Below are positions 2-21,764 of a stretch of DNA of 39,966 nucleotides, one piece after another. Position 1 is the first letter of the stretch. Each line of letters opens with the position of its first letter. The notes below the pieces were generated by a model that did no database searches, was not told where the DNA came from, and saw nothing but the letters and a program-made list of their open reading frames with translations. The translations under genes and the position numbers were made by a program. This stretch comes from Candidatus Saccharimonadota bacterium (GTDB lineage Bacteria; Patescibacteriota; Saccharimonadia; Saccharimonadales; UBA4665): assembly GCA_027365445.1 (NCBI GenBank), contig DAHXNJ010000049.1, forward strand, positions 1-39,966. The letters are read 5' to 3'.

Positions 2-544
2 TATGCAACCAACAATGGGTCATCTGTGAAAGGAGATAACTTAGTTAACTCCCCTAATCAGCAGAATAAGCTAGAACTCAGTCTTGCAAACCTTACACCT
101 GGTAACACCTATACTTACTCATTTAATGTTTGGGATAGTGGCACAATTCAAGGTTTAGTTAACAATATTGTCTATACACCACAACCTAATCCAAGCACCA
201 ATCAGAACTCTCTAGAAGGCGCACTAACCGTTAAAATATATGACGGCCAAGGTAATCTTTTAGGTTCTACGGCTGGCAACCAAAGCTCTACTTTTAGCAC
301 CAGCGGCTATAAAGGCACTTACCCTAATGGTAACTACTTTGGTCCGGACTTTATTCAGCCAGAGCATAATGGCAACACCACAATTCCGGGGAGCGGTGAA
401 GGTTTTGCAACCTATAAAGTTGTTATATCCTATGCTGGAGGCTACTACAACAATAACAATGGTACTAACCCATTAGTTAACCAAAACAATCAAGAAAATG
501 TTTCAATTGATCCGTTACTAACGGTCAACGGCAACACTCTTTAA
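2..544 (+). CDS. 3' part of a larger secreted Asn/Gly/Thr-rich protein (5' end lies upstream of the window)
   Basis: The frame is open from base 2 (YATNNGSSV...), so the GTG at 26 used by the ORF track is probably internal. Stop TAA at 542-544. Composition resembles the other secreted N/S/T-rich proteins here. It is followed by a hairpin and then the SipW-type peptidase gene. Confidence 0.6.
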   Translation, partial: YATNNGSSVKGDNLVNSPNQQNKLELSLANLTPGNTYTYSFNVWDSGTIQGLVNNIVYTPQPNPSTNQNSLEGALTVKIYDGQGNLLGSTAGNQSSTFSTSGYKGTYPNGNYFGPDFIQPEHNGNTTIPGSGEGFATYKVVISYAGGYYNNNNGTNPLVNQNNQENVSIDPLLTVNGNTL

Positions 545-6620: not shown

Positions 6621-7331
6621 ATGAGAAAAGCTAACTTTCCAAAATTAACATTCCTAAAAAAAAGCAAGAAAAATAAGTCCACAGGATCGGCTAGTCTACT
6701 ATTAACTTCTAGTGCAGCTTTTTTTGGAGTAGTAATTGGTGTTATGGGATCGCTAGGTTTCGTTGGTAACTATTTACACACACAGTTTACCAATGAAAAT
6801 GCGGTCCTATCGCACCAAATTTCATCGCTGAAAACTAATTTATTGGCATATAAAACAGCATCTTTCACTAGCACTGGAGCTTCCGCTGGACAGTGCTCAA
6901 TACCGCCTGCGTCTACAACTTCGAATGTATCCAGTAATTCAGTTATTCCTACGACAAATGAGCAGCAGCCACTAATCACAGCATCAGTCTTAAAGCCGAT
7001 TACAACAACTAGTTCACTGCCATCTTCAAGCACTAACAGCAACACTCCTGTTAGCGTCTATCCTTTTGTCCAAGAATTATCTAATGGACACTTTACAACA
7101 ACCGGAACTATAAGTGATACGGGTTATGCATCGAATAATAATGTCACTACCAATAATACGGCTACTCAAAAAGTAACCAATGACAATAAACTATCGATTA
7201 ATGTGTCAAATCCTCAAACTAGTACATCCGGCAGTTCTAGTGTAACTAGTAATACAAACGGCGGTTCAGCTACTTCAGGAAGTACCAGCAATACGAGCAA
7301 CACTAGCTTAGATGTTAAAGTGCAGAACTAA
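6621..7331 (+). CDS. Membrane-anchored/secreted Ser/Thr/Asn-rich protein with one copy of the ~76-aa 'TG-T-x-SDTG ... NTNGGSATSGS' module
   Basis: Strong SD (AAGGAGG), basic N-terminus plus TM. The C-terminal module TGTISDTGYASNNNVTTN...NTNGGSATSGSTSNTSNTSLDVKVQN is paralogous to the repeats of the 7994 gene. Confidence 0.75.
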   Translation: MRKANFPKLTFLKKSKKNKSTGSASLLLTSSAAFFGVVIGVMGSLGFVGNYLHTQFTNENAVLSHQISSLKTNLLAYKTASFTSTGASAGQCSIPPASTTSNVSSNSVIPTTNEQQPLITASVLKPITTTSSLPSSSTNSNTPVSVYPFVQELSNGHFTTTGTISDTGYASNNNVTTNNTATQKVTNDNKLSINVSNPQTSTSGSSSVTSNTNGGSATSGSTSNTSNTSLDVKVQN

Positions 7332-7366
7332 TAATTGAAATATTAAGTAGTGGGAGGGATAGCCAT

Positions 7367-7879
7367 ATGGCATTAGCAAGTTTACACACAAATTTCATTG
7401 GCATGAGTGTTCGATTGTTAATTGCCACGGCTATCCTGGTATCGGCATACTTTATTGCTAAACCTGATGCCGCATATAAAAGACCTAACTTAAATTTAAT
7501 TAACACAGCTGCATATACTGGCAATAAAGGAATAGCTAACAGTAATATCAAAATAATAAAAGCTGATTCAGTCGGTCAGGTAAAGAAGGTTAAGACCAGT
7601 ACGACCATATCAGCGGCTACTTCGTCAAATAGCGGTAATTCAAACTCCAGCAATACACTAAATATCAATGGCCAAACCGTTAAGTTAAATCCAAATTCAA
7701 CTTTTACCAAAACCATAACATCACCGAGCGGCCAGACCAATATAACCTATAGCTCTTCAAATAATAATGGTCAAGGATCTAGTAGCTCGTTAAACATTAG
7801 TAGTAAATCGGTTAGTCAGTCAGGTACAAGTTCGTCAGGACAATCATCGCAAATTAACATAAATCAATCGACTCAATAA
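7367..7879 (+). CDS. Secreted/anchored Ser/Asn-rich low-complexity protein
   Basis: SD GGGAGGG 8 nt upstream and an N-terminal hydrophobic segment. The S/N/T-rich body has short strand-like LNING, LNISS, ININQ elements. Confidence 0.65.
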   Translation: MALASLHTNFIGMSVRLLIATAILVSAYFIAKPDAAYKRPNLNLINTAAYTGNKGIANSNIKIIKADSVGQVKKVKTSTTISAATSSNSGNSNSSNTLNINGQTVKLNPNSTFTKTITSPSGQTNITYSSSNNNGQGSSSSLNISSKSVSQSGTSSSGQSSQININQSTQ

Positions 7880-7900
7880 GTTATATAGGCCTTAGTCTTT

Positions 7901-7935
7901 CGACACTAATCAATAAATATTGTTGGTTAATGTCG
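7901..7935 (+). other. Intergenic 15-bp stem hairpin (possible terminator or processing site)
   Basis: cgacactaatcaata (7901-7915) pairs with tgttggttaatgtcg (7921-7935): 14 of 15 positions including two G:U pairs, with a 5-nt loop. It is followed by a GC-rich gggagaccaccccccg and has no U tract. Confidence 0.35.
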
Positions 7936-7993
7936 GGAGACCACCCCCCGAAATAGAAATAATTAATAAATATTAGCCAAAAGGAGGCACAAT

Positions 7994-8863
7994 ATGGTAG
8001 TAAGAAAAGCATTAAGAATGACTGCTTCAGCTGTCACGTCATTAGGATTAGTTGCAGGGTTTGGCGGCATAGCAAGTGCTGCTACAACTAACGGAACCGT
8101 AAACACAACCGGATATAACTCGACTAACAATATTACAAACAACTCGACCTGGCATGGTCGTCTAATGAACATGAATGATTTGATGGCTAATGTAGTTAAC
8201 CCTCAATCTTCATTCAGTGGAAATACCTATAATCGTTTTAATACTAAAGGTGGTTCAGCTAACTCTGGTTCAGCTTCAAATAATAGTACTCTAGATGCTA
8301 ATGTAGTCTATTCAAACCCAGCTAGTATGTCTGGTTCTGGATCAGGTTCTTCATCGTTTAGCGGTATGGTTAACGACACGGGCGCACAGTCCAACAATAA
8401 TGTTACCAATAATTCAACTTGGAACGGTCGTGTAATGAACCGCAATAACTTGAATCTAAGCGTATCTAATCCACAGCAGTCATTTAGCGGTAACGCAAGT
8501 TCTAGCTATAACACTAACGGTGGTTCTGCGACTTCTGGTAGTACTAATAATACTAGCAACACCAGTGCATCAGTTAACTATGTAAATTCAGGTAGTATGA
8601 GCACAGCTGGTACTAGTGGTAGTTCATCAAATACAGGCACCGTGAGTGATACTGGTGCAATGTCTAACAATAATGTTACGACTAACACTAACACTAGCTT
8701 AAAAGTAGTTAATTCGAATAGTGCTCAGATCTCGACTAACAATCAACAACAGTCATCATCTGGCAACTCAAATGTTAGCTATAACACTAATGGTGGTTCA
8801 GCAACTTCCGGTAGTGCAAGCAACACAAGTGATACTAACATAAGCGTCGATTACTCTAATTAA
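7994..8863 (+). CDS. Secreted protein built from three tandem ~90-aa Asn/Ser-rich modules
   Basis: SD AAGGAGG and a signal peptide ending ASA-AT. There are three diverged repeats, each ending NT(K/N)GGSA(N/T)SGS..N.S......V.Y.N. The motif DNA sits at 8249-8275, 8519-8545 and 8792-8818 (period 270-273 nt). Confidence 0.8.
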   Translation: MVVRKALRMTASAVTSLGLVAGFGGIASAATTNGTVNTTGYNSTNNITNNSTWHGRLMNMNDLMANVVNPQSSFSGNTYNRFNTKGGSANSGSASNNSTLDANVVYSNPASMSGSGSGSSSFSGMVNDTGAQSNNNVTNNSTWNGRVMNRNNLNLSVSNPQQSFSGNASSSYNTNGGSATSGSTNNTSNTSASVNYVNSGSMSTAGTSGSSSNTGTVSDTGAMSNNNVTTNTNTSLKVVNSNSAQISTNNQQQSSSGNSNVSYNTNGGSATSGSASNTSDTNISVDYSN

Positions 8864-8943
8864 GACAATAATATAGAGTTATTATTAGTTTAATAGTTAT
8901 CACATCACGTGTGACTATTTACTAAACAGCGTAGATGGAAAAA

Positions 8944-8968
8944 GGGCAGATGGGTGGTCTGTCTGCCC
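8944..8968 (+). terminator. GC-rich hairpin downstream of the 7994 gene
   Basis: gggcaga (8944-8950) pairs with tctgccc (8962-8968), followed by ccctagtattcttt. It is a GC island in AT-rich spacer. Confidence 0.45.
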
Positions 8969-9055
8969 CCCTAGTATTCTTTAGTAATGAAAGATTAAAA
9001 CTGTATAAATTTAAAATAATTGCAAATGTAAGTCAATAATAATGAGGAGCCGTCT

Positions 9056-11185
9056 ATGTCTAACCAATTCTTTTTACTAAAACGTCGGATCAAACAAATT
9101 GTCTATCTAATGATGTCACTAGTTTTACTAGGCGGCTTGCCTTTTCCAGCTTACGCACTTGCTGCTACGACCAGCACAGCTATATCGAACAATAGTAGTT
9201 GTCCGCTAGCAACCGGTACAACTAAGCCTACCGGAGCATCAGCAGTAACTTATATTTATAATCCAAAAACATGTTTATGGTCTAATGCTTATTATACTTG
9301 GAATCCAGTAAACGGAGTATATACACCACTAACTCCACTTACTTATACATATAATCAATCAACTGGACTATGGGATTCAACTCAGTGGGTGTATGATCCT
9401 GTAACCAATAAATACGAACAGCAGCCCTTTAGTGTTAGTCAGGTCCCGACCGGAGCTAAAACAATTGGTGGTCCTGCATTAACCTCTTCTTCTAGTAATA
9501 CGTTAAATAATCAAAATTCTGCTTCAAATCAGAATAATTCATCATCGTCATCTAGTTCTAGCGCGAGCAATGGTTCTAATAATGTTACTACGGCCAATAC
9601 TAATAATATAAATCTTAACAATAACAATAATGCTAATGTTAATAATACCCAAAATCAAACAACTAACAGTGGTAATAGTTCAGTATTCGGGAATACCTCT
9701 GCCGGGAATGCTACGAGTGGTAATGCAACATCATTGGCTACGGTCGTAAACAGTATTGCGTCAAACTCACCTTTAGCTAATGCTACCCAATTTACGGCTA
9801 ATATTGACGGTAACGTAAACGGTAATTTAACATTTAATCCGACTCAATTATTTCAACCTGCCAATAGTTCGATCTTAAATTCTAATCAGAATAACGTTAC
9901 TATTAATCAGGCTAATAATAGTTCTATAACTAATAATATTAATCTTGCTACTAATACCGGTAATGCAACAGTCGCAGATAATAATAATGCAGGCAGCGCA
10001 ACCAGCGGCAATGCTAATTCAGTAGCCAATGTAGTTAATATGATTAATTCTATGATAAGTTCTAGAAAATCATTTATTGGAGTAATAAACATCCTAGGTG
10101 ATTTGAATGGGAATATCTTGGTGCCTCAACAATTCTTAAGTGGTTTAATTGCCTCCAACGCGCCTCGATCAACCTACGCCGTAAATAACAATACACTAAA
10201 CAAAGATAGCTTTACGTCTAATCAAAATCAGACTATAAATAATAATATTAGTACCTCTGCGGCATCCGGTAGCGCTATTGTTAATAAGAATACGACGGCT
10301 GGTAATGCAACCAGTGGTAACGCCTCAACTAACGTTACTATATTTAACTTAGCTGGAGATAATGTATCTACTTCTAACTCTATGCTTGTGTTCGTTAATG
10401 TACTAGGAACATGGGTGGGTATGATTCTAAACGCTCCAGCCGGTACTACGTCGGCATTGCTTGGAGGAGGAACTCAATCAACGGGCAGTATAAATAATAA
10501 TCAAGTGAATAATGTTAAAGTTGCTAATACTTCTAATCAGACAATAAATAATAATATTGGTCTTAAATCAAAAAGCGGCAACGCCTTGGTAAGTGAAAAT
10601 ACTAATGCTGGAAATGCCACGAGCGGCAACGCTACGGCATCAGCTAATATCGCTAATCTTGAAAACGATAACTTGAATATGTCTAATTGGTTTGGAATAT
10701 TGTTTATTAACGTATTTGGAAAGTGGATAGGAAGCTTAGGATTATATAATCCGTTAGCCTTAAGTACTAACCAAAGTAGTAATACTACAACTGGTGCAAA
10801 CACAAAGATAGCTACAAATGTACATAATCTCCCTGCTTTTAGTGTCACGAATGCCAATGATAGTATTGCTTTTAGTAAAATTAAGCTTCCAATACTTAGT
10901 GGCAGTAGTTCTTTGTCTGGTGGAATCGGTAGTAATGTGACTAACAGTAGTAATAACTCAGTTAATAATACTAAAAAACCTAATTCAAGTAAGGCACCGA
11001 AGTATAGTTTAACTAGTATTAAGAAGCCTATTAATAAGACTGGTAACAACTATAAGTTAAAAGCTTTACCTAAGAATTCGTCAACAACTGAGATATTCGC
11101 TATTGGAGCTGTAGGTATTGGAATGGCTTTATTTGGAGTTGACTATATTATCCGTCATAAAGCACTTTCTACGACAAATAGATAG
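9056..11185 (+). CDS. Large secreted surface protein (709 aa): W/Y-rich N-terminal repeats, four ~100-aa 'AGNATSGNA' modules, C-terminal hydrophobic anchor
   Basis: SD GAGGAG and a signal peptide ending AYA-LA. The motif A-G-(N/S)-A-T-S-G-N-A lies at nt 9701-9730, 9989-10018, 10298-10324 and 10607-10633 (period 288-309 nt). Three of the four modules are followed by a hydrophobic (V/I)(I/F)(I/V)N(V/I)(L/F)G element (GVINILGDLNGNI, VFVNVLGTWVGMI, LFINVFGKWIGSL); module 1 lacks it. The C-terminus is ALPKNSS followed by a TM and RHK. Confidence 0.8.
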   Translation: MSNQFFLLKRRIKQIVYLMMSLVLLGGLPFPAYALAATTSTAISNNSSCPLATGTTKPTGASAVTYIYNPKTCLWSNAYYTWNPVNGVYTPLTPLTYTYNQSTGLWDSTQWVYDPVTNKYEQQPFSVSQVPTGAKTIGGPALTSSSSNTLNNQNSASNQNNSSSSSSSSASNGSNNVTTANTNNINLNNNNNANVNNTQNQTTNSGNSSVFGNTSAGNATSGNATSLATVVNSIASNSPLANATQFTANIDGNVNGNLTFNPTQLFQPANSSILNSNQNNVTINQANNSSITNNINLATNTGNATVADNNNAGSATSGNANSVANVVNMINSMISSRKSFIGVINILGDLNGNILVPQQFLSGLIASNAPRSTYAVNNNTLNKDSFTSNQNQTINNNISTSAASGSAIVNKNTTAGNATSGNASTNVTIFNLAGDNVSTSNSMLVFVNVLGTWVGMILNAPAGTTSALLGGGTQSTGSINNNQVNNVKVANTSNQTINNNIGLKSKSGNALVSENTNAGNATSGNATASANIANLENDNLNMSNWFGILFINVFGKWIGSLGLYNPLALSTNQSSNTTTGANTKIATNVHNLPAFSVTNANDSIAFSKIKLPILSGSSSLSGGIGSNVTNSSNNSVNNTKKPNSSKAPKYSLTSIKKPINKTGNNYKLKALPKNSSTTEIFAIGAVGIGMALFGVDYIIRHKALSTTNR

Positions 11186-11244: not shown

Positions 11245-11691
11245 ATGGATAACTTCGGTAAATCACAAAAAATAGTTATAGTTGAAGATAATGTTAGCTT
11301 AGCAGATATATATAAAACAAGATTAGAGTTATTGGGCTATAGTTGTTTTGTAGCCTATGATGGTGTGGCTGCGTTGAATATTATAGAACATGAATTGCCC
11401 AATTTGGTATTACTGGATCTAATGGTTCCTAAAATTGCTGGTGACCAAATATTAGAGACGATGAGAAAAAGTGTCTGGGGTAGGGATATACCGGTATTTA
11501 TCATATCTAACCTCAATGAGGCTGATGCGCCTACGGGTTTAAGGGAGATGGGTATTGAAGGTTATGCTGTTAAGGCCAATCTTTCTAACAATCAATTAGA
11601 TGAACTAGTCGATAATATTCTAAAACCAGCGGACCAGCAAGAGGACGTATTATTAGAAACTAATGAAAATGACCAAACTACAATTGCTTAA
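11245..11691 (+). CDS. Single-domain response regulator (CheY-like receiver only)
   Basis: VEDN acidic pocket, LLDLMVP phospho-acceptor Asp, IISNL (Ser/Thr position) and AVKA (Lys). No output domain and no kinase gene in the window. Confidence 0.85.
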
Positions 11692-13886
11692 GTAGCTTTT
11701 AGGATTAATAAAGATTTTCCTTCATAAGCTGACAAAGAAATAGAAAAGGTATTTAGGTCATCGACGTTACCAATAACTTGATCTTCAAACATGTCATAAA
11801 TTTCTGCACCAGCAATGAGGTATTCTGAGTTAACGCTTCCAGATATCTCATCGCCCGAAAAGTTAAGGACACTTAATTGGATCATATCGTTTTCTGGTAA
11901 AACATGGACCATGACTAGCATTGATTTATGAGAAACGTTAGGAATATCTACTTGACGAGCAATATCTATCGAATATTTTTTCCTAATAGCTATTATTTTT
12001 CTTAAATTTACCGCAAAAGATCCTTCATCTTTTAGCTGCTCATTTAATGATCCGTATAAAGCTGATGCTATAGGCATACCAGCAGTACTGGATTTTGCAT
12101 TATGATTGATGCCCATTAGGTCATAGCCGCCTCTATTGATCCATCTAGTATCACCGTCTTTTATAAGTTCTTTGATTTTCTCTTTGTCAATAGTTAGGGC
12201 TCCTACTAAGTCCCAACCGGAAAGAGCAAAAACACCTGGTTGTAAAGCATTAAACATGGCCATAAGTAGGTGTACATGCTTAATTTTTTCTAAATTGTTG
12301 CTATTTATGTTAGATAAATCTGTTATACCCAAGACGGCACATATAAGAGAAGCCGAGGTGCAGGCTATTCCATTTGTGGTAAATAATAGGTTATAGGGAG
12401 CAGCCTCGCCACATAAGCAATTAGCTATTTCTTGTCGAATGATCTTTCTAAGCTCAAGTCCACTGATTTGCGTATCACGAAAATCAAATAGATCATCTTT
12501 ATGTAGTGTCCAGAGGTGAACCAATTCATATGTTAAGTCGTCATGGTTTTGTAGGGCGTGAACTAAAGATGCTGGATCGACGCCTAGTTCAAGTCCAATC
12601 CGCATCATTAATCTTAAAAATTCGGTGTCGGATTTTATCAGTGCATGATGATAGGCTGGCCTAGTAATGAAGTCATAAGATAAATCGGCCCCAGCATGAG
12701 ACATGTTGACTATATCATCAATTGCTAAGTTAAGTTCCTGGAAAGTAAAACCACCAACTTTCCTGACCATGCCGGAAATTAGTAAGTTAGCCGCTTCACT
12801 TAATGGGTGTCCTTCAGACCATGCCGGCTGGTCTTCACTGGATTTTTCTACTCCTAGGAAGCCATTTGCATCAAGTCTCAGAGCACTTGAACCTAGATCG
12901 CCAAGTGAGTGCAGGGCATCACCGACAACAAGTTTCATGCCGGCAAAGCTTGGATCAAGCCAGTTTATTGATGGTTGACCATCCTTAAAGTAGTGAAGGT
13001 AGACCCACCGTCTAGCAATTCCATCCACACCTTTAATTTCTTTAGTTACGCTCCAGTTAGTTTCTTTAACGCCAGGTTCAAAGAAGATTACGCGTTGTAG
13101 CTTGCCGATTATATAACCGAGATGTTTTAATTCTTCTTCAGTCTCTATCGATAAATTAATTGAGTCTTTGCTTTTTGGAACTGCTGGTAATACTTTCCAG
13201 TGCTCAGGCAATATTTCTACCATATGATAAATTCCGGGATAATCCTTATAGCCCATTTCAGCCAATATAAAATCAAAGCCCTTACCTGTGTGGCCAGGAA
13301 TAATATCGTCAATTATTATGCCACCGTTTGCTTTCGCGGTATTGCTCATATTAATGTATTCGCTTTCGCTACCAAATATAGGATCGATTCGGTTACTTAT
13401 CCTATCAAAGTGGCCATCAATGCTTGGTGTTTGTTTCCAGCCACTTATACCGCCAGCTAATTTTAGTGGCCCAGTATGTAGAGCATCAATGCCAATAGTA
13501 TGAAAAGCAGCCCATAGCTCATCACTGCCTAATGTTTTTAATATTGATTCATTGTCTTTAGTTACTAATGACAGACCATAAGACGTATACCAAACTGAGG
13601 CCATTTTAACAGCCATTCTTGGTCTAGGCTTGGCAAATGGACGTTGCCACATGCTTCCTTTAGCTGAATATTTTGTAGCTATCTTATTGGCTTGATAGAG
13701 CATTGATTCTCGTTTTAACCATCCTACATATGATTTATTTTTAGCCGAAGCAGGACCAAGTCGGCGGATGTTAATTGGAGCAATAACAAAACCTCGTGCT
13801 TTAAGCCATAATTTTTTAGGACGCGCAGGGAAAAACTGCTCGGAAAAACTAAGCTTACCTGAACTATGAAAAAGTCTGCGTGCCAT
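11688..13886 (-). CDS. GH13 alpha-amylase-superfamily enzyme, trehalose synthase/transglucosidase-like (732 aa); exact activity not assignable
   Basis: GH13 regions: DDIIPGHTG (I), [11 protein letters not shown] (II, nucleophile Asp), FTFQELN (III, Glu), [11 protein letters not shown] (IV; NHDELT-like as in TreS). Confidence 0.75.
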
Positions 13887-16180: not shown

Positions 16181-17989
16181 ATGCTTATGTTTGCAGATAG
16201 ATTGGCTGTTCTTGTAAATCTTAACCAACCAGGTCACTTTCTTCATTGGTCTTTCTTTACCATATCGGTTGCTAACTTGGTAATCATAGCTGTCATGGTA
16301 GTTATTTTTGGATTAGCATTGCTATTGCCTTTCCCTAAGGGTCGTAAAGAAGAAAATGAAATACAGGACGATCGACCAATTCAAGAGGATGTAAACTTAA
16401 GGACATCGGCACTAGTAGCCTCTCCTGAAAGTAAGATGTGGACAGCTCGAGTAAGAAATTTTGGACTTCGAATTTTACCACCAGGTAAGCTACTTCCTGA
16501 TAGACAACCAGCTTATGTGTCATCTTGGATTTATGTCTTTGGTGTTGCCACACTAGCTGCTCTAGGAATGGTCGTTGCATCAGGTATGGCTCTTGCCATT
16601 GGTGGACCAGATTGGTGGCATACTAACCCAATTGGTCATTTCTTTAATAGTATGCATTTGTGGGGTGTAGAGCTGTTTATGGCTTTTATGGTCATCCATC
16701 TATGGGGTAAATTCTGGATGGCTGCATGGAGAGGCAAACGTTCACTAACATGGATTACTGGTGTCATTGCGTTTGTCACCTCAATCTTGGAATGCTTTAC
16801 GGGTTATTTATCTCAACAAAACTTTGACTCTCAATGGATAGCTACAAACGGCAAGGACGCAATCAATGCTACGGGTATGGGTAGTTTTTTTAATCTAATG
16901 AACTTTGGCCAAATGTTAATGTGGCATATTGTGCTTATTCCTATTGTTCTAGTGGCGATCATAGGGGCACATGTATTATTGGTTCGAGTTAAGGGAGTTG
17001 TTCATCCAATTCAAAGCAAGTCGCATAGTAGAGCTGAGCGTAAAGCAATAAGAGCAGCAGAAGCCAAAGCCTGGCGTGGCGCAACTCGTCGTTATGACAT
17101 CTTAAAAGAAGCAAGCATAGCTTCGCTAGTAGTGTTTTTGTTAGTTATTGGCTTAGCAACATTACTATCTTCACCTGATAAGCCACCGGTTACTGTTGCT
17201 AGTTGGGCTAAAGTAGCTCCAGCTAATTTTATGGCTACGGCTGCCAGTGAATTAGCGGGGACAAGCGAAACAGCCACTTATGGGCCACCGTATGACCATT
17301 TACCCAAGCAAGGGTCAGATGATGCTCAGAAAATTGGCATTAGTTGGCAACTGTTAGCTGGTGTAACACAACCTATAAATACTGGTCAAACTTTTGTGCT
17401 ATCACCTTTGTCCAAGATAGCTCCAACGAACAAAAAGCTATCTATGGCTCTAGACAAATATGAAGCTGCTAGCACAACCCAACGACAATCCTGGAACAGG
17501 GCATATGCTAAAGCGGTGACTAAGGTTCGTTTCGTTTCTGGTGTGCCCAAACTACCAAAGACTAAAGCTGGACCAATACCCACTCTTATAACAACCGAGT
17601 TAACGCTTGCGAGATCAGGAGCAATAGATGCTGATTTACTAGCGCAGCAGCCATTTTATGGCACCAATTACACGAAACCTTTATTATTTATTGAGGATGG
17701 TAATTACTTTTCGTCAATAGCCAAAAAGGACCATTTATATGGAACTCAATGGGGTGTAATGAACGAGACTGGGAGTTATCCAGGTCAACCATGGCTATGG
17801 CTTTATACCTTGTGGTATCAGGTACCTGGCTTTAGCACATCAATGAATGTAGACTTAATTGCCGTATATTTAACAGGACTGGCTACATTAATTTTATTAT
17901 TAATACCGTTTATACCAGGTATTAGGGATATACCCAAGATCGTACCAATTTATCGTTTAATATGGAAAAGGTGGTATAAAAGTAAATAG
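16181..17989 (+). CDS. Di-haem cytochrome b (QcrB/b6-like N-terminal domain) with atypical C-terminal half
   Basis: Helix B has His...His 14 residues apart (MHLWGVELFMAFMVIHLWGKFWMAAWRG). Helix D has His...His 15 apart (WHIVLIPIVLVAIIGAHVLL), the b6/QcrB spacing. LECFTGY resembles QcrB FEGYFGY. The real start may be ATG 16187. Confidence 0.8.
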   Translation: MLMFADRLAVLVNLNQPGHFLHWSFFTISVANLVIIAVMVVIFGLALLLPFPKGRKEENEIQDDRPIQEDVNLRTSALVASPESKMWTARVRNFGLRILPPGKLLPDRQPAYVSSWIYVFGVATLAALGMVVASGMALAIGGPDWWHTNPIGHFFNSMHLWGVELFMAFMVIHLWGKFWMAAWRGKRSLTWITGVIAFVTSILECFTGYLSQQNFDSQWIATNGKDAINATGMGSFFNLMNFGQMLMWHIVLIPIVLVAIIGAHVLLVRVKGVVHPIQSKSHSRAERKAIRAAEAKAWRGATRRYDILKEASIASLVVFLLVIGLATLLSSPDKPPVTVASWAKVAPANFMATAASELAGTSETATYGPPYDHLPKQGSDDAQKIGISWQLLAGVTQPINTGQTFVLSPLSKIAPTNKKLSMALDKYEAASTTQRQSWNRAYAKAVTKVRFVSGVPKLPKTKAGPIPTLITTELTLARSGAIDADLLAQQPFYGTNYTKPLLFIEDGNYFSSIAKKDHLYGTQWGVMNETGSYPGQPWLWLYTLWYQVPGFSTSMNVDLIAVYLTGLATLILLLIPFIPGIRDIPKIVPIYRLIWKRWYKSK

Positions 17990-18357: not shown

Positions 18358-20016
18358 ATGCCAATTAATGAATCTATCAATGTTATAACTAAGAGCGATG
18401 AAAGAGCTGCCTATTTAGCTACACAAGCAAGCAACGCCGAACAAACCAGTGATAGATCTCAAGACATAGAATCTCAAGAATTTAGCTTAAGCGACTCCGA
18501 ACAAGCTAGGCTTAGTCATAAGCATAAAAATGGTCAAGAGTTTAGTGCATATAGTGCTGAACAGGCTAAAAAAATGTGTCCATTTTTAGGAGGGTTATCA
18601 TTAGAAGAGGCGGATCTTTATTTAACTTTATATGAACTTGGTGGTGAGGTAATGGCAAAAGAAGAGAAGGCTAAGTCTGAACAACGAGGTAATTTAAATA
18701 AAGAAAATAGCAAAGAACATATCCTAAAAGTAAAAAAAGATAAGGAGGAGATTTCTAGTGTAAGCACACCTCATACTGAAATAGTAAGACCGATTATAGA
18801 GTCAAGCCTTTCAGAAGATGAATTGTTGCTAAGTAAATCAAAACAAGAGTTGTCGCCTAGGCCGTTAATAGAGTTGTCTTTGCCAGATCTACCTACTCCA
18901 ATAGAGCCACCTAATATTAGAGCCGTACCACAAGAAGAACTTCATCAGCAATCTGTTGAACCATTAGATACTGTATTGGCTAGTAGTGTGCCAGATGATG
19001 CAATTAGATTACAGATTGATCAGCAAATTAATGAAGCTTTAGTTGCACCAATCATAGAAACAAGTAGGGATGATAATGTAGTTAACGATAGATTAATTGT
19101 AGCCGAGGAATTTACAGCCTTGCCTAATTTGGATATATTATTCCAGAATACAATAGCTAAAGGAGACTATCTTGAGGATAAACCTTTAATTTATTCTATA
19201 GATGAACTAGAAAGTAGGTTAGTTAATAAAGAAGATATTATACTGCCGGATGTATCAATTACTGAAGAAGAAAATGACGATGCATTTTTTGCGATAACAG
19301 CAAATGATATGGGCGAAATGATAGCTAATGACGCACTTAGCGTAAGAAGGTCTGAAGAAGTTGTTGTTCTGGTTGACGAAGCCATACGGTTAAGTGAAAG
19401 TACTGAAACGGGCGCTGATCAAGCTGATCTTTGTAATCCGGTTGAATTGTTGTGTGATATTTTAGAAGATGCTAGATTAAAGCAGCTCAGTGAGATACTT
19501 GTCATGCCTGACTTATTAAATAGCGATTATGAGCCAGATAGTTTAGATATAAAAGAAGATAATCTATCAGAGGAAGAGATGGTTATCTTTCCTGCTTCGA
19601 TGATAAAGATAGTCGATCGACTTAGTGCTCCAATTGATGAGAGTGAGACAAATATGGCTCATATTGTTACGGAGATTATAATTAAAGCTCAATTGTTATC
19701 AGAACCAGTAACTGAGTCTATAGACTTAAGTGATGAAGAATTTAAGGATATTGAATGTGAGCTAGAAGTATTGGTAGCAAATTTATATGATGCTATGGGT
19801 ATCGACTTTGATCAATCGGAAATTGATCTATTTGTTAGTATACTGAAGGATCATAAATTTCACTCTAGTGTGTCTTTAGAGCAATCCGATATTGACTTAA
19901 CTAAAGCCGGAACTAGAGAAGCAAAAACAAGTTTTCAGCACTTTAGTAATACTTTTATTGATTGGCAACAACAAATACTTATGCTAATTGGTAAATTATC
20001 GTTGCTATATGCATAG
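18358..20016 (+). CDS. Hypothetical hyper-acidic protein (552 aa), likely largely disordered or extended
   Basis: Long clean ORF, very Asp/Glu/Ser/Leu-rich. Repeated (R/A)P(I/L)IE(S/L/T)S motif at residues 144, 168 and 230. Internal YELGGE at residues 92-97. Short hydrophobic C-terminus ILMLIGKLSLLYA. No recognisable domain. Confidence 0.65.
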   Translation: MPINESINVITKSDERAAYLATQASNAEQTSDRSQDIESQEFSLSDSEQARLSHKHKNGQEFSAYSAEQAKKMCPFLGGLSLEEADLYLTLYELGGEVMAKEEKAKSEQRGNLNKENSKEHILKVKKDKEEISSVSTPHTEIVRPIIESSLSEDELLLSKSKQELSPRPLIELSLPDLPTPIEPPNIRAVPQEELHQQSVEPLDTVLASSVPDDAIRLQIDQQINEALVAPIIETSRDDNVVNDRLIVAEEFTALPNLDILFQNTIAKGDYLEDKPLIYSIDELESRLVNKEDIILPDVSITEEENDDAFFAITANDMGEMIANDALSVRRSEEVVVLVDEAIRLSESTETGADQADLCNPVELLCDILEDARLKQLSEILVMPDLLNSDYEPDSLDIKEDNLSEEEMVIFPASMIKIVDRLSAPIDESETNMAHIVTEIIIKAQLLSEPVTESIDLSDEEFKDIECELEVLVANLYDAMGIDFDQSEIDLFVSILKDHKFHSSVSLEQSDIDLTKAGTREAKTSFQHFSNTFIDWQQQILMLIGKLSLLYA

Positions 20017-20079: not shown

Positions 20080-20502
20080 ATGTATAATACATTAAAATAT
20101 GGATATATTATGATTGAAGGAGCTAGGGACTTAGAGGCTTACACCATAACCAGAGATGAATATTATAGTAAAAATGTAGGTGATCAAGAGAGAAAAATAA
20201 TAAAGCCAAATATTACTGATATGGCTAATAAAATAATAAAAGCAGAGATGCTTAGTGATATTATTAGCGATAAGCCATGGATTGATCGTGCAAAATGTAA
20301 TATTCAAAAAGTAGAAGCAAACCTATTTTTCCCATCAACAACAGAAGGGGCTATAGTAGCTTGTGAGTATTGCCAGGATTGCCCGGTAAAAAAAGAATGT
20401 AAACAATATGCAATTGACAACAAAGAAGTATATGGAGTATGGGGTGGTGTTGATTTTGAGAGAGAAAAGAGAAGGGCAAAATATTTGCGAAACCATAAAT
20501 AA
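20080..20502 (+). CDS. WhiB-like (Wbl) Fe-S transcription factor with N-terminal extension
   Basis: Cys pattern C-x24-C-x2-C-x5-C (AKCN...CEYCQDCPVKKECKQYA), the G(V)WGG turn (YGVWGGV) and a basic tail EREKRRAKYLRNHK. The start is uncertain (20080 or in-frame ATG 20110). Confidence 0.85.
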   Translation: MYNTLKYGYIMIEGARDLEAYTITRDEYYSKNVGDQERKIIKPNITDMANKIIKAEMLSDIISDKPWIDRAKCNIQKVEANLFFPSTTEGAIVACEYCQDCPVKKECKQYAIDNKEVYGVWGGVDFEREKRRAKYLRNHK

Positions 20503-20645: not shown

Positions 20646-21764
20646 ATGAGAAAAAAAATATTAAAGCTACTATCCAAAAGAGTTAAGAATACCTTCTATT
20701 CGGTTGGTTCTATATTTTTAGTTGGATTAGTTATATCTTTTGCGTTACCTCCTATAAAAAGAATAAATATCGTGCCTACTTCTCAATCTAAAGTAATAAC
20801 TAAGCCAAAGGCCGTTATTAAACCAGAAAAAGTAAAGCCTAAGACAATATCTAAGCCAAGTCCTAAGCCCGTTGTTAGTTATAATAGTCCACCACCTGTA
20901 ACTAAAAGTCCTGCTCCTACAACTACTCAGAAGACTACGTCTGCTCCAACGACAGTTATTACTCCCGCACCGAGTAGCAGTGTAAATACACTAACTCCCT
21001 CAACTTCGTCATCCTCTACCAGTACTTCCACTTCCACTTCGACCTCTTCGTCATCCTCAACTAGTACTTCAACTTCGACCTCTTCATCAACCCCTACTTC
21101 TAGTCCTCCTCCCGCTACTACATCTACGAGTTATACTTCATCAAATTGGGCAGGGTATCTAGTTGCTTCGACAAAGTATACCGCTATAACTGCTGACTGG
21201 GTTGCTCCAACAGTTACCGGTAATGGTGCTTCTCTTTCAGCTGACGCATCTTGGATTGGGATTGGTGGTGTTACGACTTCAGATTTAATACAAATCGGGA
21301 CAGATAATACCGTATCATCTTCAGGAGTTGTAACTACAGGAGCTTTTTATGAGCTTTTACCTAATGCCGCTATTACGATCACCTCCCTTAACATATCACC
21401 TGGAGATACAATAAATGCATCAATCCAAGAAACTTCTACTAATGAATGGACGATTACGTTAATTGATGTAACTAAAAATCAAACTTTTACTAAAAATGTT
21501 TCCTATACTTCTTCGTTGTCTTCGGCTGAGTGGATCGAAGAAGATCCAAGCAATAGCTCTGGAAACCTATATCCGTTGGATAATTTTGGCACTGTATCTT
21601 TTAGTGACGTTACTACGACTGCAAATGGTACTAAAGAAGATTTAAGTGCTGTCAATGGAGATAGTATTACGATGTTAAATAGTTCAAGTCAACCTATTGC
21701 TACGCCATCAGCTATTGGAAGCAATGGTTCTAGTTTTAGTGTAACTAGGCAAAATCCTAGTTAA
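20646..21764 (+). CDS. Membrane-anchored glutamic peptidase, G1/eqolisin (Peptidase A4) family, with Pro/Ser/Thr linker
   Basis: N-terminal TM and a P/S/T-rich linker. SSNWAGY, SWIGIGG, LIQIGTD (catalytic Gln position) and AEWIEEDP (catalytic Glu position) match the scytalidoglutamic peptidase signature. Confidence 0.8.
   Translation: MRKKILKLLSKRVKNTFYSVGSIFLVGLVISFALPPIKRINIVPTSQSKVITKPKAVIKPEKVKPKTISKPSPKPVVSYNSPPPVTKSPAPTTTQKTTSAPTTVITPAPSSSVNTLTPSTSSSSTSTSTSTSTSSSSSTSTSTSTSSSTPTSSPPPATTSTSYTSSNWAGYLVASTKYTAITADWVAPTVTGNGASLSADASWIGIGGVTTSDLIQIGTDNTVSSSGVVTTGAFYELLPNAAITITSLNISPGDTINASIQETSTNEWTITLIDVTKNQTFTKNVSYTSSLSSAEWIEEDPSNSSGNLYPLDNFGTVSFSDVTTTANGTKEDLSAVNGDSITMLNSSSQPIATPSAIGSNGSSFSVTRQNPS
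21006..21083 (+). repeat. Imperfect tandem duplication (42 + 36 nt) encoding the poly-Ser/Thr linker
   Basis: Unit tcgtcatcctc.ac.agtacttc(cacttc)cacttcgacctct at 21006-21047 is repeated at 21048-21083 without the 6-nt insert. Confidence 0.8.

Follow-up and report, generated by a model that had tools for sequence, protein, structure and literature searches.

What do four consecutive genes of an ultrasmall Candidatus Saccharimonadota bacterium (Saccharibacteria, TM7) build, when three of them carry the same Asn-, Ser- and Thr-rich repeat and all four appear to encode exported or membrane-anchored products? The genes, called here A, B, C and D, occupy positions 6621–11185 of contig DAHXNJ010000049.1 (assembly GCA_027365445.1), of which the whole stretch of 39,966 nucleotides analysed is referred to as the window. 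The initial annotation of this DNA had proposed an amyloid-like or beta-solenoid surface fibre system, an interpretation which the present analysis partly supports. Our tentative and preferred reading is that D and A, held in the membrane, act as templates on which secreted C stacks in register, giving a surface fibre or coat. The shared module, the conservation of the gene set, the coevolution within and between modules and the alternatives to stacking are considered in turn.

Four exported proteins and their shared module

The four genes lie on the + strand and each is preceded, at 6–9 nt, by a Shine–Dalgarno (SD) site (AGGAGG for A, GGGAGG for B, AAGGAGG for C and GAGGAG for D). Hydropathy profiles of the products, of 236, 170, 289 and 709 amino acids (aa), respectively, revealed hydrophobic N-terminal segments at residues 22–50 in A, 8–33 in B, 11–30 in C and 12–38 in D, together with a second segment in D that corresponds to a C-terminal transmembrane (TM) helix (677–699). 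Coordinates, SD sites and hydropathy agree in this respect with the first description of the locus as four same-strand genes, each with an SD site and a signal peptide or N-terminal anchor, and Sec-dependent export or membrane anchoring is strongly indicated for all four products. The features of the cluster, identified from open reading frames (ORFs), SD sites, hydropathy, spacer folding and a hidden Markov model (HMM) of the module, are as follows.

6621–7331, + strand: gene A (ORF, SD, hydrophobic segment, module HMM), with a basic cytoplasmic tail, a TM anchor at aa 22–50, an S/T-rich spacer of ~110 aa and one C-terminal module.
7098–7328, + strand: A module (aa 160–236, module HMM E = 1.6e-19); the protein end is the invariant terminal Asn.
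7367–7879, + strand: gene B (ORF, SD, hydropathy), with an N-terminal TM anchor or signal at aa 8–33, then a variable spacer and, at the C-terminus, a conserved beta domain of ~70 aa.
7895–7941, + strand: B/C stem-loop (folding of the spacer).
7994–8863, + strand: gene C (ORF, SD, HMM, hydropathy), without anchor, its three modules standing in tandem behind a predicted cleavable Sec signal peptide (...GIASA|ATT).
8087–8320, + strand: C module 1 (aa 32–109, HMM E = 1.9e-15).
8357–8590, + strand: C module 2 (aa 122–199, HMM E = 2.5e-17).
8603–8860, + strand: C module 3 (aa 204–289, HMM E = 4.5e-17), ending on the invariant C-terminal Asn.
8944–8969, + strand: C/D GC-rich stem-loop GGGCAGAtgggtggTCTGTCTGCCCC (folding of the spacer, recurrence in relatives).
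9056–11185, + strand: gene D, running from a signal peptide through a Cys/Trp-rich beta domain near the N-terminus, a low-complexity linker, four enlarged modules and an S/T/N/K-rich spacer to a TM anchor at the C-terminus.
9203–9475, + strand: D N-terminal domain (aa 50–140), with Y-x-Y-N-x-x-T-G-x-W hairpin-like repeats, conserved Cys and conserved W/Y/P/C columns; predicted local distance difference test (pLDDT) 85–90.
9536–9829, + strand: D module 1 and extension (aa 161–258, HMM E = 5.5e-6).
9857–10126, + strand: D module 2 and hydrophobic extension IGVINILGDLNGNI (aa 268–357, HMM E = 3.3e-3; core pLDDT 79–89).
10136–10432, + strand: D module 3 and hydrophobic extension LVFVNVLGTWVG (aa 361–459, HMM E = 2.1e-6).
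10445–10747, + strand: D module 4 and hydrophobic extension ILFINVFGKWIG (aa 464–564, HMM E = 2.2e-7).
10751–11083, + strand: D low-complexity S/T/N/K/P spacer (aa 566–676), varying among orthologues, with pLDDT <50 and poorly conserved columns.
11084–11170, + strand: D C-terminal TM helix and the basic tail (RHK) behind it (helix 677–705 in the model; hydropathy, alignment).

The motif [AG]G[NS]A[TN]SG[NS] occurs once in A (residue 214), three times in C (86, 176 and 267) and four times in D (216, 312, 415 and 518), and was not found in B. Its spacing of 90 and 91 aa in C (270 and 273 nt) and of 96, 103 and 103 aa in D (288, 309 and 309 nt) reproduces exactly the copy numbers of one, three and four, and the nucleotide periods, that had been read from the DNA at the outset. 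A module HMM of 78 positions, for which 46 modules from proteins of other organisms and none from the window were used, recovered all eight copies (1.6e-19 for that of A, 1e-15 to 1e-17 for the three of C and 2e-7 to 3e-3 for the four of D), so that A, C and D match the profile of the other family members, and gave no match to B. The module measures ~78 aa in A and C and ~100 aa in D. Composition-corrected BLAST aligned the A module to C module 3 with 59% identity over 76 aa, a likeness far beyond what low complexity would give by chance.

The consensus of the C-type module reads G.I..TGP.S.N.V...V.V.N.N....N.N.Q.A.SG.A.V..NTTGG.ATSG.ASN....V.V.N, and in proteins of both the A and the C type the last strand closes with an invariant Asn, directly followed by the stop ([VI]-x-[VI]-x-N-stop). 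The conserved Pro of the TGPxS turn is replaced by Tyr or Ala in the window modules (TGY, TGA). In D, the alignment of 32 orthologues gave the consensus INNNI..A.SGNA.V..NT.AGNATSGNA followed by a hydrophobic strand pair, which takes the forms F.ANI.G.V.G, GVINI.G.L.G, LVFVNV.G.W.G and ILFINVFG.W.G in modules 1 to 4. This element, kept family-wide in the orthologue alignment, follows D2 (IGVINILGDLNG), D3 (LVFVNVLGTWVG) and D4 (ILFINVFGKWIG), as the initial annotation had noted for three of the four D modules, yet D1 is not devoid of it and bears a weak version, FTANIDGNVNG. The C-terminal beta domain of B has a consensus of its own, VNGQ.V.VP.NGT.H..I...NG.T.VDISV, and B is a conserved, putatively accessory protein.

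Since N, S, T and G make up ~50–60% of A, C and D, the three proteins might be suspected of being unrelated low-complexity ORFs that resemble each other by composition, and both the diffuse matches in uncorrected BLAST and the absence of a tandem repeat in the DNA would agree with it. Regarding the latter, Tandem Repeats Finder (TRF) called no module-length tandem repeats at the DNA level because the copies are too diverged for this program, and the repeats are visible only in the protein. Against such an artefact, matches remain after composition correction, the independent HMM reaches down to 1e-19, dozens of invariant columns persist over hundreds of orthologues at ~40–45% identity, and the strict synteny and coherent coevolution ladders described below point in the same direction. 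Alignments, synteny, HMM and couplings taken together refute a compositional origin, to which we leave practically no probability.

Searches against known families were uniformly negative. A to D and 13 near and distant homologues produced sub-threshold noise only in Pfam and NCBIfam; more specifically, no Pfam match at E <= 1 was obtained for the module with the curlin repeat (PF07012) or for the chaplin domain (PF03777), and no TasA/camelysin-type subunit was matched by A–D in Pfam or NCBIfam. Neither D nor the C-family profile retrieved a chain at E <= 10 among PDB sequences, CsgA and FapC included, and hhalign against an approximate sequence of Escherichia coli CsgA returned a probability of 3.6%. 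The head domain of D yielded spurious leucine-rich repeat matches only in PDB, with no significant sequence or fold match. An Ig-like fold of the DUF11/CARDB type, which the 'NTGP' turn had suggested, was rejected because a profile match was absent. No description of the module family was found in the literature searched, including a Saccharibacteria transposon sequencing (Tn-seq) study (PMC10633639) and PMC13622651; the essential adhesins of the former study are different proteins, with VCBS, dockerin and FN3 domains (PMC10633639). The early remark that no characterised function was known for the module is supported in that no characterised family matched it in Pfam, NCBIfam, PDB sequences or the literature searched.

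Conservation of the gene set in relatives

Homologues of D number more than 1,484, almost all of 650–710 aa and all annotated as 'hypothetical protein' from Candidatus Saccharimonadales or Saccharibacteria. The architecture is fixed in 32 orthologues at ~40–45% identity, the Ser/Thr-rich spacer being variable. C-type homologues are mostly of ~195 aa, consisting of a signal peptide and two modules and ending on the invariant Asn, and the three-module C of the window is a less common variant. According to an exhaustive profile search, the module family falls into 2,110 clusters at the 50% identity level, of which 305 score below 1e-30, and includes distant arrays of the Candidate Phyla Radiation (CPR) type with six or more module copies. 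In many C orthologues (such as P0121, P0124, P0134 and P0145) Asp occupies every second residue of the exposed face (VDVDNDNDVDVDND...), where the window proteins have Asn, Ser or Thr; these acidic faces suggest binding of cations (Ca2+) in part of the family.

Scanning 185,579 species genomes with one motif pattern led to 130 confirmed loci, all in Saccharibacteria, Saccharimonadales, Patescibacteria or unnamed bacterial metagenome-assembled genomes. A same-strand D-type gene directly follows the C-type gene in ~73 of the 79 loci retrieved. When the window and three other loci are added to these (83 sources), a B-like gene detected with an iterated HMM stands directly upstream of C in 62 and an A-like gene, encoding a TM anchor and one module, occurs nearby in ~40, in varying position and strand. 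The window shows this same context, a B-like gene, a multi-module secreted gene and then a D-type gene of the ~600–770 aa class. To judge from this gene order, (A)-B-C-D appears to be a conserved and previously undescribed Saccharimonadales operon, its module family being without a curated name. The flanking genes (metK, response regulator, TreS, penicillin-binding protein and S26 peptidase) were not conserved with the cluster in relatives, and for this reason the response regulator encoded at 11245–11691 was not counted as part of it. One relative locus, L003, which carries P0078, lies on a 1.9-Mb contig, large for Saccharibacteria; there, the gene for a giant protein of >5,200 aa with a CBM_4_9 domain precedes the B-like gene by ~1.7 kb and D by 3.3 kb, and the downstream gyrase genes appear broken into many short ORFs.

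Conservation extends to one of the intergenic spacers. The C/D hairpin is GC-rich (z = -3.1), and relatives likewise have GC-rich hairpins, of the type GGGGAGAG...CUCUCCCC, between C and D (median z = -2.8 over 68 loci, z < -2 in 72% of them). The B/C hairpin is AU-rich and without U-tract (minimum free energy of the region -28.3 kcal/mol, z = -3.4), no hairpin was found in the A/B spacer, and no canonical terminator was called on the + strand. Of the GC-rich hairpins that had been described as separating the genes, that of C/D thus stands, while the B/C structure is stable but not GC-rich; likewise, the control of stoichiometry attributed to them is plausible at the C/D junction and not elsewhere. 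The C/D hairpin is probably an attenuator or a 3' stabiliser, and such an element, conserved downstream of C, would raise the amount of C above that of D, as befits a major subunit and a minor anchor; this excess is read from the hairpin.

Architecture and proposed stacking of the modules

Mean-field direct coupling analysis (DCA) of 753 distinct modules (effective number of sequences, Meff, 668) yielded two ladders of contacts. In the first, with i+j = 105/107, positions 28–49 pair with 77–55 (from 28–77 to 49–55) around NT(T)GG as the turn; in the second, with i+j = 19–21, positions 1–7 pair with 18–13 around the TG(P)xS turn, which in addition contacts positions 44–45, 51–54 and 60–61. The coupled pairs are N28–N77, V32–V73/75, V34–A71, N38–N67, Q40–N65, A42–A63, G45–G61, A47–A58 and V49–G55. 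Coupling is restricted to the conserved face, with typical values of 1.4–3.7 against a 99th percentile of 1.5, whereas the variable opposite face gives ~0.2. No couplings of fixed separation (i to i+period) were detected within the module, the periodicity being that of the whole module (92–103 aa). These data strongly indicate that each module is a long strand-turn-strand arch in which 28–49 faces 55–77 with NT(x)GG at the tip, that a short N-terminal arch packs on this tip, and that the facing surface consists of Asn, Gln, Val, Ala and Gly, the other face being variable and polar. Two details of the initial annotation have to be revised accordingly, since the ladders describe one large layer of ~78–100 aa per module instead of a series of short rungs, and the GG(S)ATSG motif, taken for the module end, is the tip of the arch. 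Nor do the couplings within the module show the rungs of ~18–30 residues of a classical right-handed beta-helix or autotransporter solenoid. Since the long strands have no hydrophobic face, a membrane beta-barrel or pore was also rejected.

Ladders of constant i+j are formally also the signature of an antiparallel hairpin, and at this point a different reading of the locus has to be weighed. A, C and D could be a set of non-polymerising fibrillar adhesins, with D as a stalk adhesin composed of anchor, spacer, four bead-like antiparallel modules and head, and with A and C as paralogues, secreted or associated with the wall, that form no stack. The order of parts in D is indeed that of fibrillar adhesins, with a distal well-folded head, a repeat stalk, a low-complexity spacer and an anchor. 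No LPXTG is conserved in D across the 32 orthologues, though the hydrophobic stretch and basic tail are present; an LPDTG sorting signal, like that of Gram-positive adhesins, occurs only in the distant homologue P0146. The nature of the coupled residues speaks for another geometry. The facing pairs are Gly–Gly, Ala–Ala and Asn–Asn and not those of a hydrophobic domain core, and this combination of small residues and Asn/Gln, together with an uncoupled outer face, is the reason why a face-to-face beta-arch fits better than a hydrogen-bonded hairpin. Coevolution would thereby favour the geometry found in the layers of CsgA and FapC. The resemblance to curlin and Fap repeats first suspected is supported in this geometric sense, and not as homology, given the hhalign and PDB results above.

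AlphaFold predicted all-beta structures for both D (32 sequences, mean pLDDT 57.5, with 85–90 in the head domain and 79–90 in the module cores) and C (67 sequences, mean pLDDT 55.9). In the models, equivalent strands are equally long in all modules (in D, for example, 184–204, 280–300, 384–403 and 487–506), and parts of them lack a possible partner within the module, the facing segment being non-strand or disordered; these unpartnered parts therefore point to parallel sheets between modules in the models. The expectation that structure prediction would return a repetitive solenoid agrees with the parallel, solenoid-like, all-beta stack obtained, at low to moderate confidence. Without reaching significance, the top Foldseek neighbours of the C model belong throughout to the parallel beta-solenoids or the functional amyloids (FapC, SufBD, tapirin, pectate lyase 3, CsgA, ice-binding proteins, bactofilin and Ag43), and the model appears to resemble them in local geometry, not in overall shape. 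Hairpin or Ig-like stalks do not figure among these neighbours, which speaks against the adhesin set.

Couplings between modules bear on stacking as well. In a set of 360 two-module proteins, almost every one of the 50 strongest couplings was in register (i, i+92), those at conserved Asn being the strongest. This signal in the C family was downgraded because its repeats evolve in concert, the modules within one protein being 53% identical against 42–45% for orthologous modules elsewhere; the same process could produce in-register couplings in a set of stalk adhesins. The modules of D behave differently, with 46–58% identity between orthologues against 32–42% between paralogous modules, and with an identity within one protein only 1–3.5 points above the level of paralogues across proteins. 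In-register scores in D were nevertheless 0.44 for D3–D4, 0.41 for D2–D4, 0.31 for D1–D2, 0.25 for D2–D3, 0.13 for D1–D4 and 0.11 for D1–D3, against ~0.03 for any shifted register. In-register enrichment despite little homogenisation favours physical stacking. Cross-module 'arch' couplings in D were too noisy and were discarded. Modules of A and C from the same genome are also more alike than those from different genomes (45.3% versus 39.0%, in 95% of loci, p = 1.5e-7), and so are those of D and C (p = 2e-5), which is compatible with co-assembly.

Several observations weigh against stacking, or at least against its strength. Overall AlphaFold confidence is low for both proteins, which also leaves room for the adhesin set; AlphaFold tends to draw solenoids for N/S/T-rich repeats, and stacking in the models was read from DSSP strings. 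No Foldseek match was significant for D against PDB and BFVD or for C against PDB (best E = 1.6e-3, probability 0.21, template modelling (TM) score 0.09–0.13). To the formal ambiguity of the i+j ladders and the concerted evolution of the C repeats must be added that a layer of ~78–100 aa is much larger than in known native beta-solenoids, and that D2 (268–357) is coupled to D4 (464–564) as strongly as adjacent modules are, where a simple sequential stack predicts otherwise. The likeness of A, C and D within a genome could also reflect shared composition, compositional drift or gene conversion. The Asp runs on the exposed face of many homologues would repel each other in register unless cations bind. 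Finally, no dedicated secretion or assembly machinery was linked to the cluster among the window ORFs and the flanks in relatives.

Even so, the variable exposed face is uncoupled across strands and yet strongly coupled in register between modules, and the in-register signal is still seen in D, whose modules have escaped homogenisation; both speak against a row of independent stalk beads. Such a row would also leave without a role the unanchored, head-less C, although no partner of D is better conserved and C is probably the product expressed most. We consequently regard the non-polymerising adhesin set as rather unlikely, and retain the stacking of C on anchored D and A as a provisional working model.

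A proposed anchored-template model of assembly

In the stacking model, modules would lie in register, one per layer, giving a parallel cross-beta structure or a flattened beta-solenoid held together by Asn ladders and a zipper of small residues (Gly/Ala). D would be retained in the membrane by its C-terminal helix and raised through the wall by the ~110 aa spacer, presumed to be a wall-spanning stalk, and would constitute a stable four-layer platform or template, in which the extra hydrophobic strands form a real core and the Trp-rich head, possibly a ligand- or wall-binding domain, is distal. A, a single layer held by its N-terminal anchor, could serve as template or cap. C would be the secreted major stacking subunit, of two to three layers and without anchor or hydrophobic extension, adding to the free edges of D and/or A and to other C molecules to produce a fibre or coat for attachment or envelope structure, and B might assist assembly as a membrane-tethered accessory. 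Stacking, polymerisation, stoichiometry and biological role are what we infer, while the gene set, export signals, module homology, arch contacts and conservation are the findings described above. Nothing in the analysis shows that the system is the main surface or attachment structure of the cell, as had been suggested initially.

The same components could instead form a two-dimensional coat, S-layer-like or cation-bridged, or a component of the wall matrix, whose acidic or Asn-rich faces bind Ca2+ or wall or host polysaccharide and which would serve protection or envelope integrity. An operon that is near-universal in one lineage and lies amid housekeeping genes would suit such a function, as would anchored partners attached from opposite termini (A by the N-terminus, D by the C-terminus) with a free subunit between them, and the D-x-D-x-D faces of homologues recall Ca2+-dependent beta-rolls and ice-binding proteins, the latter being also in the Foldseek list. 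However, SLH and other wall-binding domains are missing from the proteins, Pfam and NCBIfam gave no match to an S-layer family, C is very small for a lattice protein, and the window proteins are rich in Asn, Ser and Thr, not acidic. The data do not tell a sheet from a fibre, and we consider this alternative improbable.

Like other CPR bacteria, Saccharibacteria live attached to their bacterial hosts, and we know of no surface molecules of CPR bacteria beyond type IV pili and a few adhesins. Against this background stands a module family with thousands of members, conserved across Saccharimonadales and without annotation. It is conceivable, though doubtful, that it represents an independent functional amyloid or giant-rung beta-solenoid, the first in the CPR, in which D and A nucleate C into a host-contact fibre or coat. 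If layers do stack, the system would be a new and independently evolved class of functional-amyloid or solenoid fibre with an unusually large layer, and with a built-in design of anchored template and free subunit in a wall-bearing cell lacking an outer membrane, offering a concrete and genetically tractable candidate for envelope and attachment biology in microbial dark matter. Should the proteins be stalk adhesins instead, they would still provide a new stalk domain family for the annotation of CPR genomes.

Neighbouring genes and known systems

Upstream of the cluster, an archaeal/SipW-type signal peptidase I is encoded at 605–1198 on the + strand (TIGR02228, 87 bits versus a cutoff of 51.9; the SipW model is also matched), separated from genes A and C by ~5.4 and ~6.8 kb, respectively. 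In relatives, no SipW-like gene was found within +/-6 kb of the cluster, flanks that may be too short to reach it. Directly upstream of the peptidase, the ORF at 2–544 (+), maybe cut by the window edge, encodes a beta-rich, Asn/Gly/Thr-rich product with no family match, a pairing reminiscent of SipW and the substrates dedicated to it, TasA and TapA. Downstream, the gene for a trehalose synthase (maltose alpha-D-glucosyltransferase, 11688–13886, - strand; TIGR02455, 920 bits) overlaps the end of the convergent response-regulator gene (11245–11691) by 4 nt. A Pup-ligase/Dop-like protein (PF03136; 14676–16109, - strand), well under the NCBIfam equivalog cutoffs, and a WhiB-family regulator (20080–20502, +) are Actinobacteria-type features in a Saccharibacteria genome. 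The window also encodes a 602-aa protein with a cytochrome b N-terminal-like domain (16181–17989, +), followed by a 552-aa ORF (18358–20016, +) with no Pfam or NCBIfam match, and a 372-aa protein (20646–21764, +) with a Peptidase A4 domain of the scytalidoglutamic or eqolisin type (E = 8e-35), a family mostly fungal and uncommon in bacteria.

By analogy, the A–D system would work most like those amyloids that combine an anchored template with a free subunit, such as curli (CsgB/CsgA), the long and short chaplins and TapA/TasA. Judged by family searches, the operon is not homologous to curli, Fap, chaplins or TasA. With curli it shares secreted imperfect repeats forming strand-turn-strand arches, with Gln, Asn, Gly, Ala and Ser inward and, as proposed here, stacked in register, as well as a homologous cell-bound partner that could template the free major subunit as CsgB does for CsgA; CsgA is moreover among the non-significant Foldseek neighbours of the C model. 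The layer is of ~22 aa in curli and of 78–100 aa here, the anchors here are TM helices, and no CsgE/F/G-type genes were found among the window ORFs of at least 100 aa scanned, in an organism which, as a member of the Saccharibacteria, we take to be without an outer membrane. The Fap amyloid of Pseudomonas (FapC with FapB and FapF) resembles the system in having larger multi-strand layers per imperfect repeat, with linkers between them, and FapC is the top Foldseek match of both models, at non-significant values (E = 0.32 and 1.6e-3, probability <=0.21, TM score <=0.13). Sequence similarity to FapC is absent, however, the repeat consensus is another one and there is no FapF-like transporter.

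The TasA/TapA/SipW biofilm fibre system of Bacillus, a monoderm, likewise consists of a small operon for a major secreted fibre subunit and a minor anchoring or nucleating partner. Its subunit TasA has a globular jelly-roll fold and polymerises by donor-strand exchange, in contrast to the repeat stack proposed here. Gram-positive stalk adhesins of the SasG/Aap type share with D the distal head, the tandem beta-rich stalk repeats, the low-complexity spacer and the C-terminal anchor, yet A–D gave no matches to G5, E or Ig-like domains, stacked parallel layers are favoured here over end-to-end antiparallel domains, and these adhesins have no counterpart to the head-less and anchor-less C. Within the CPR, unnamed repeat proteins with no Pfam match (...TG(A/P)xSxN...NTG(D/G)GSVxTGDA...) belong to the same module superfamily and carry three to six or more tandem copies in proteins of up to 926 aa; these are long single-chain arrays, whereas the Saccharimonadales cluster splits the module over anchored and free proteins in a fixed operon. 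The chaplin domain is shorter (~40 aa) and hydrophobic, in contrast to the polar module of 78–100 aa, and long chaplins are anchored by sortase where A and D use TM helices. Nevertheless, the long (ChpA–C) and short (ChpD–H) chaplins of Streptomyces are paralogues in a Gram-positive-type envelope that carry one small domain in varied copy number and whose tethered and free members jointly build a surface amyloid layer, and as such they offer the closest analogy for one, three and four module copies distributed over A, C and D, some anchored and some free.

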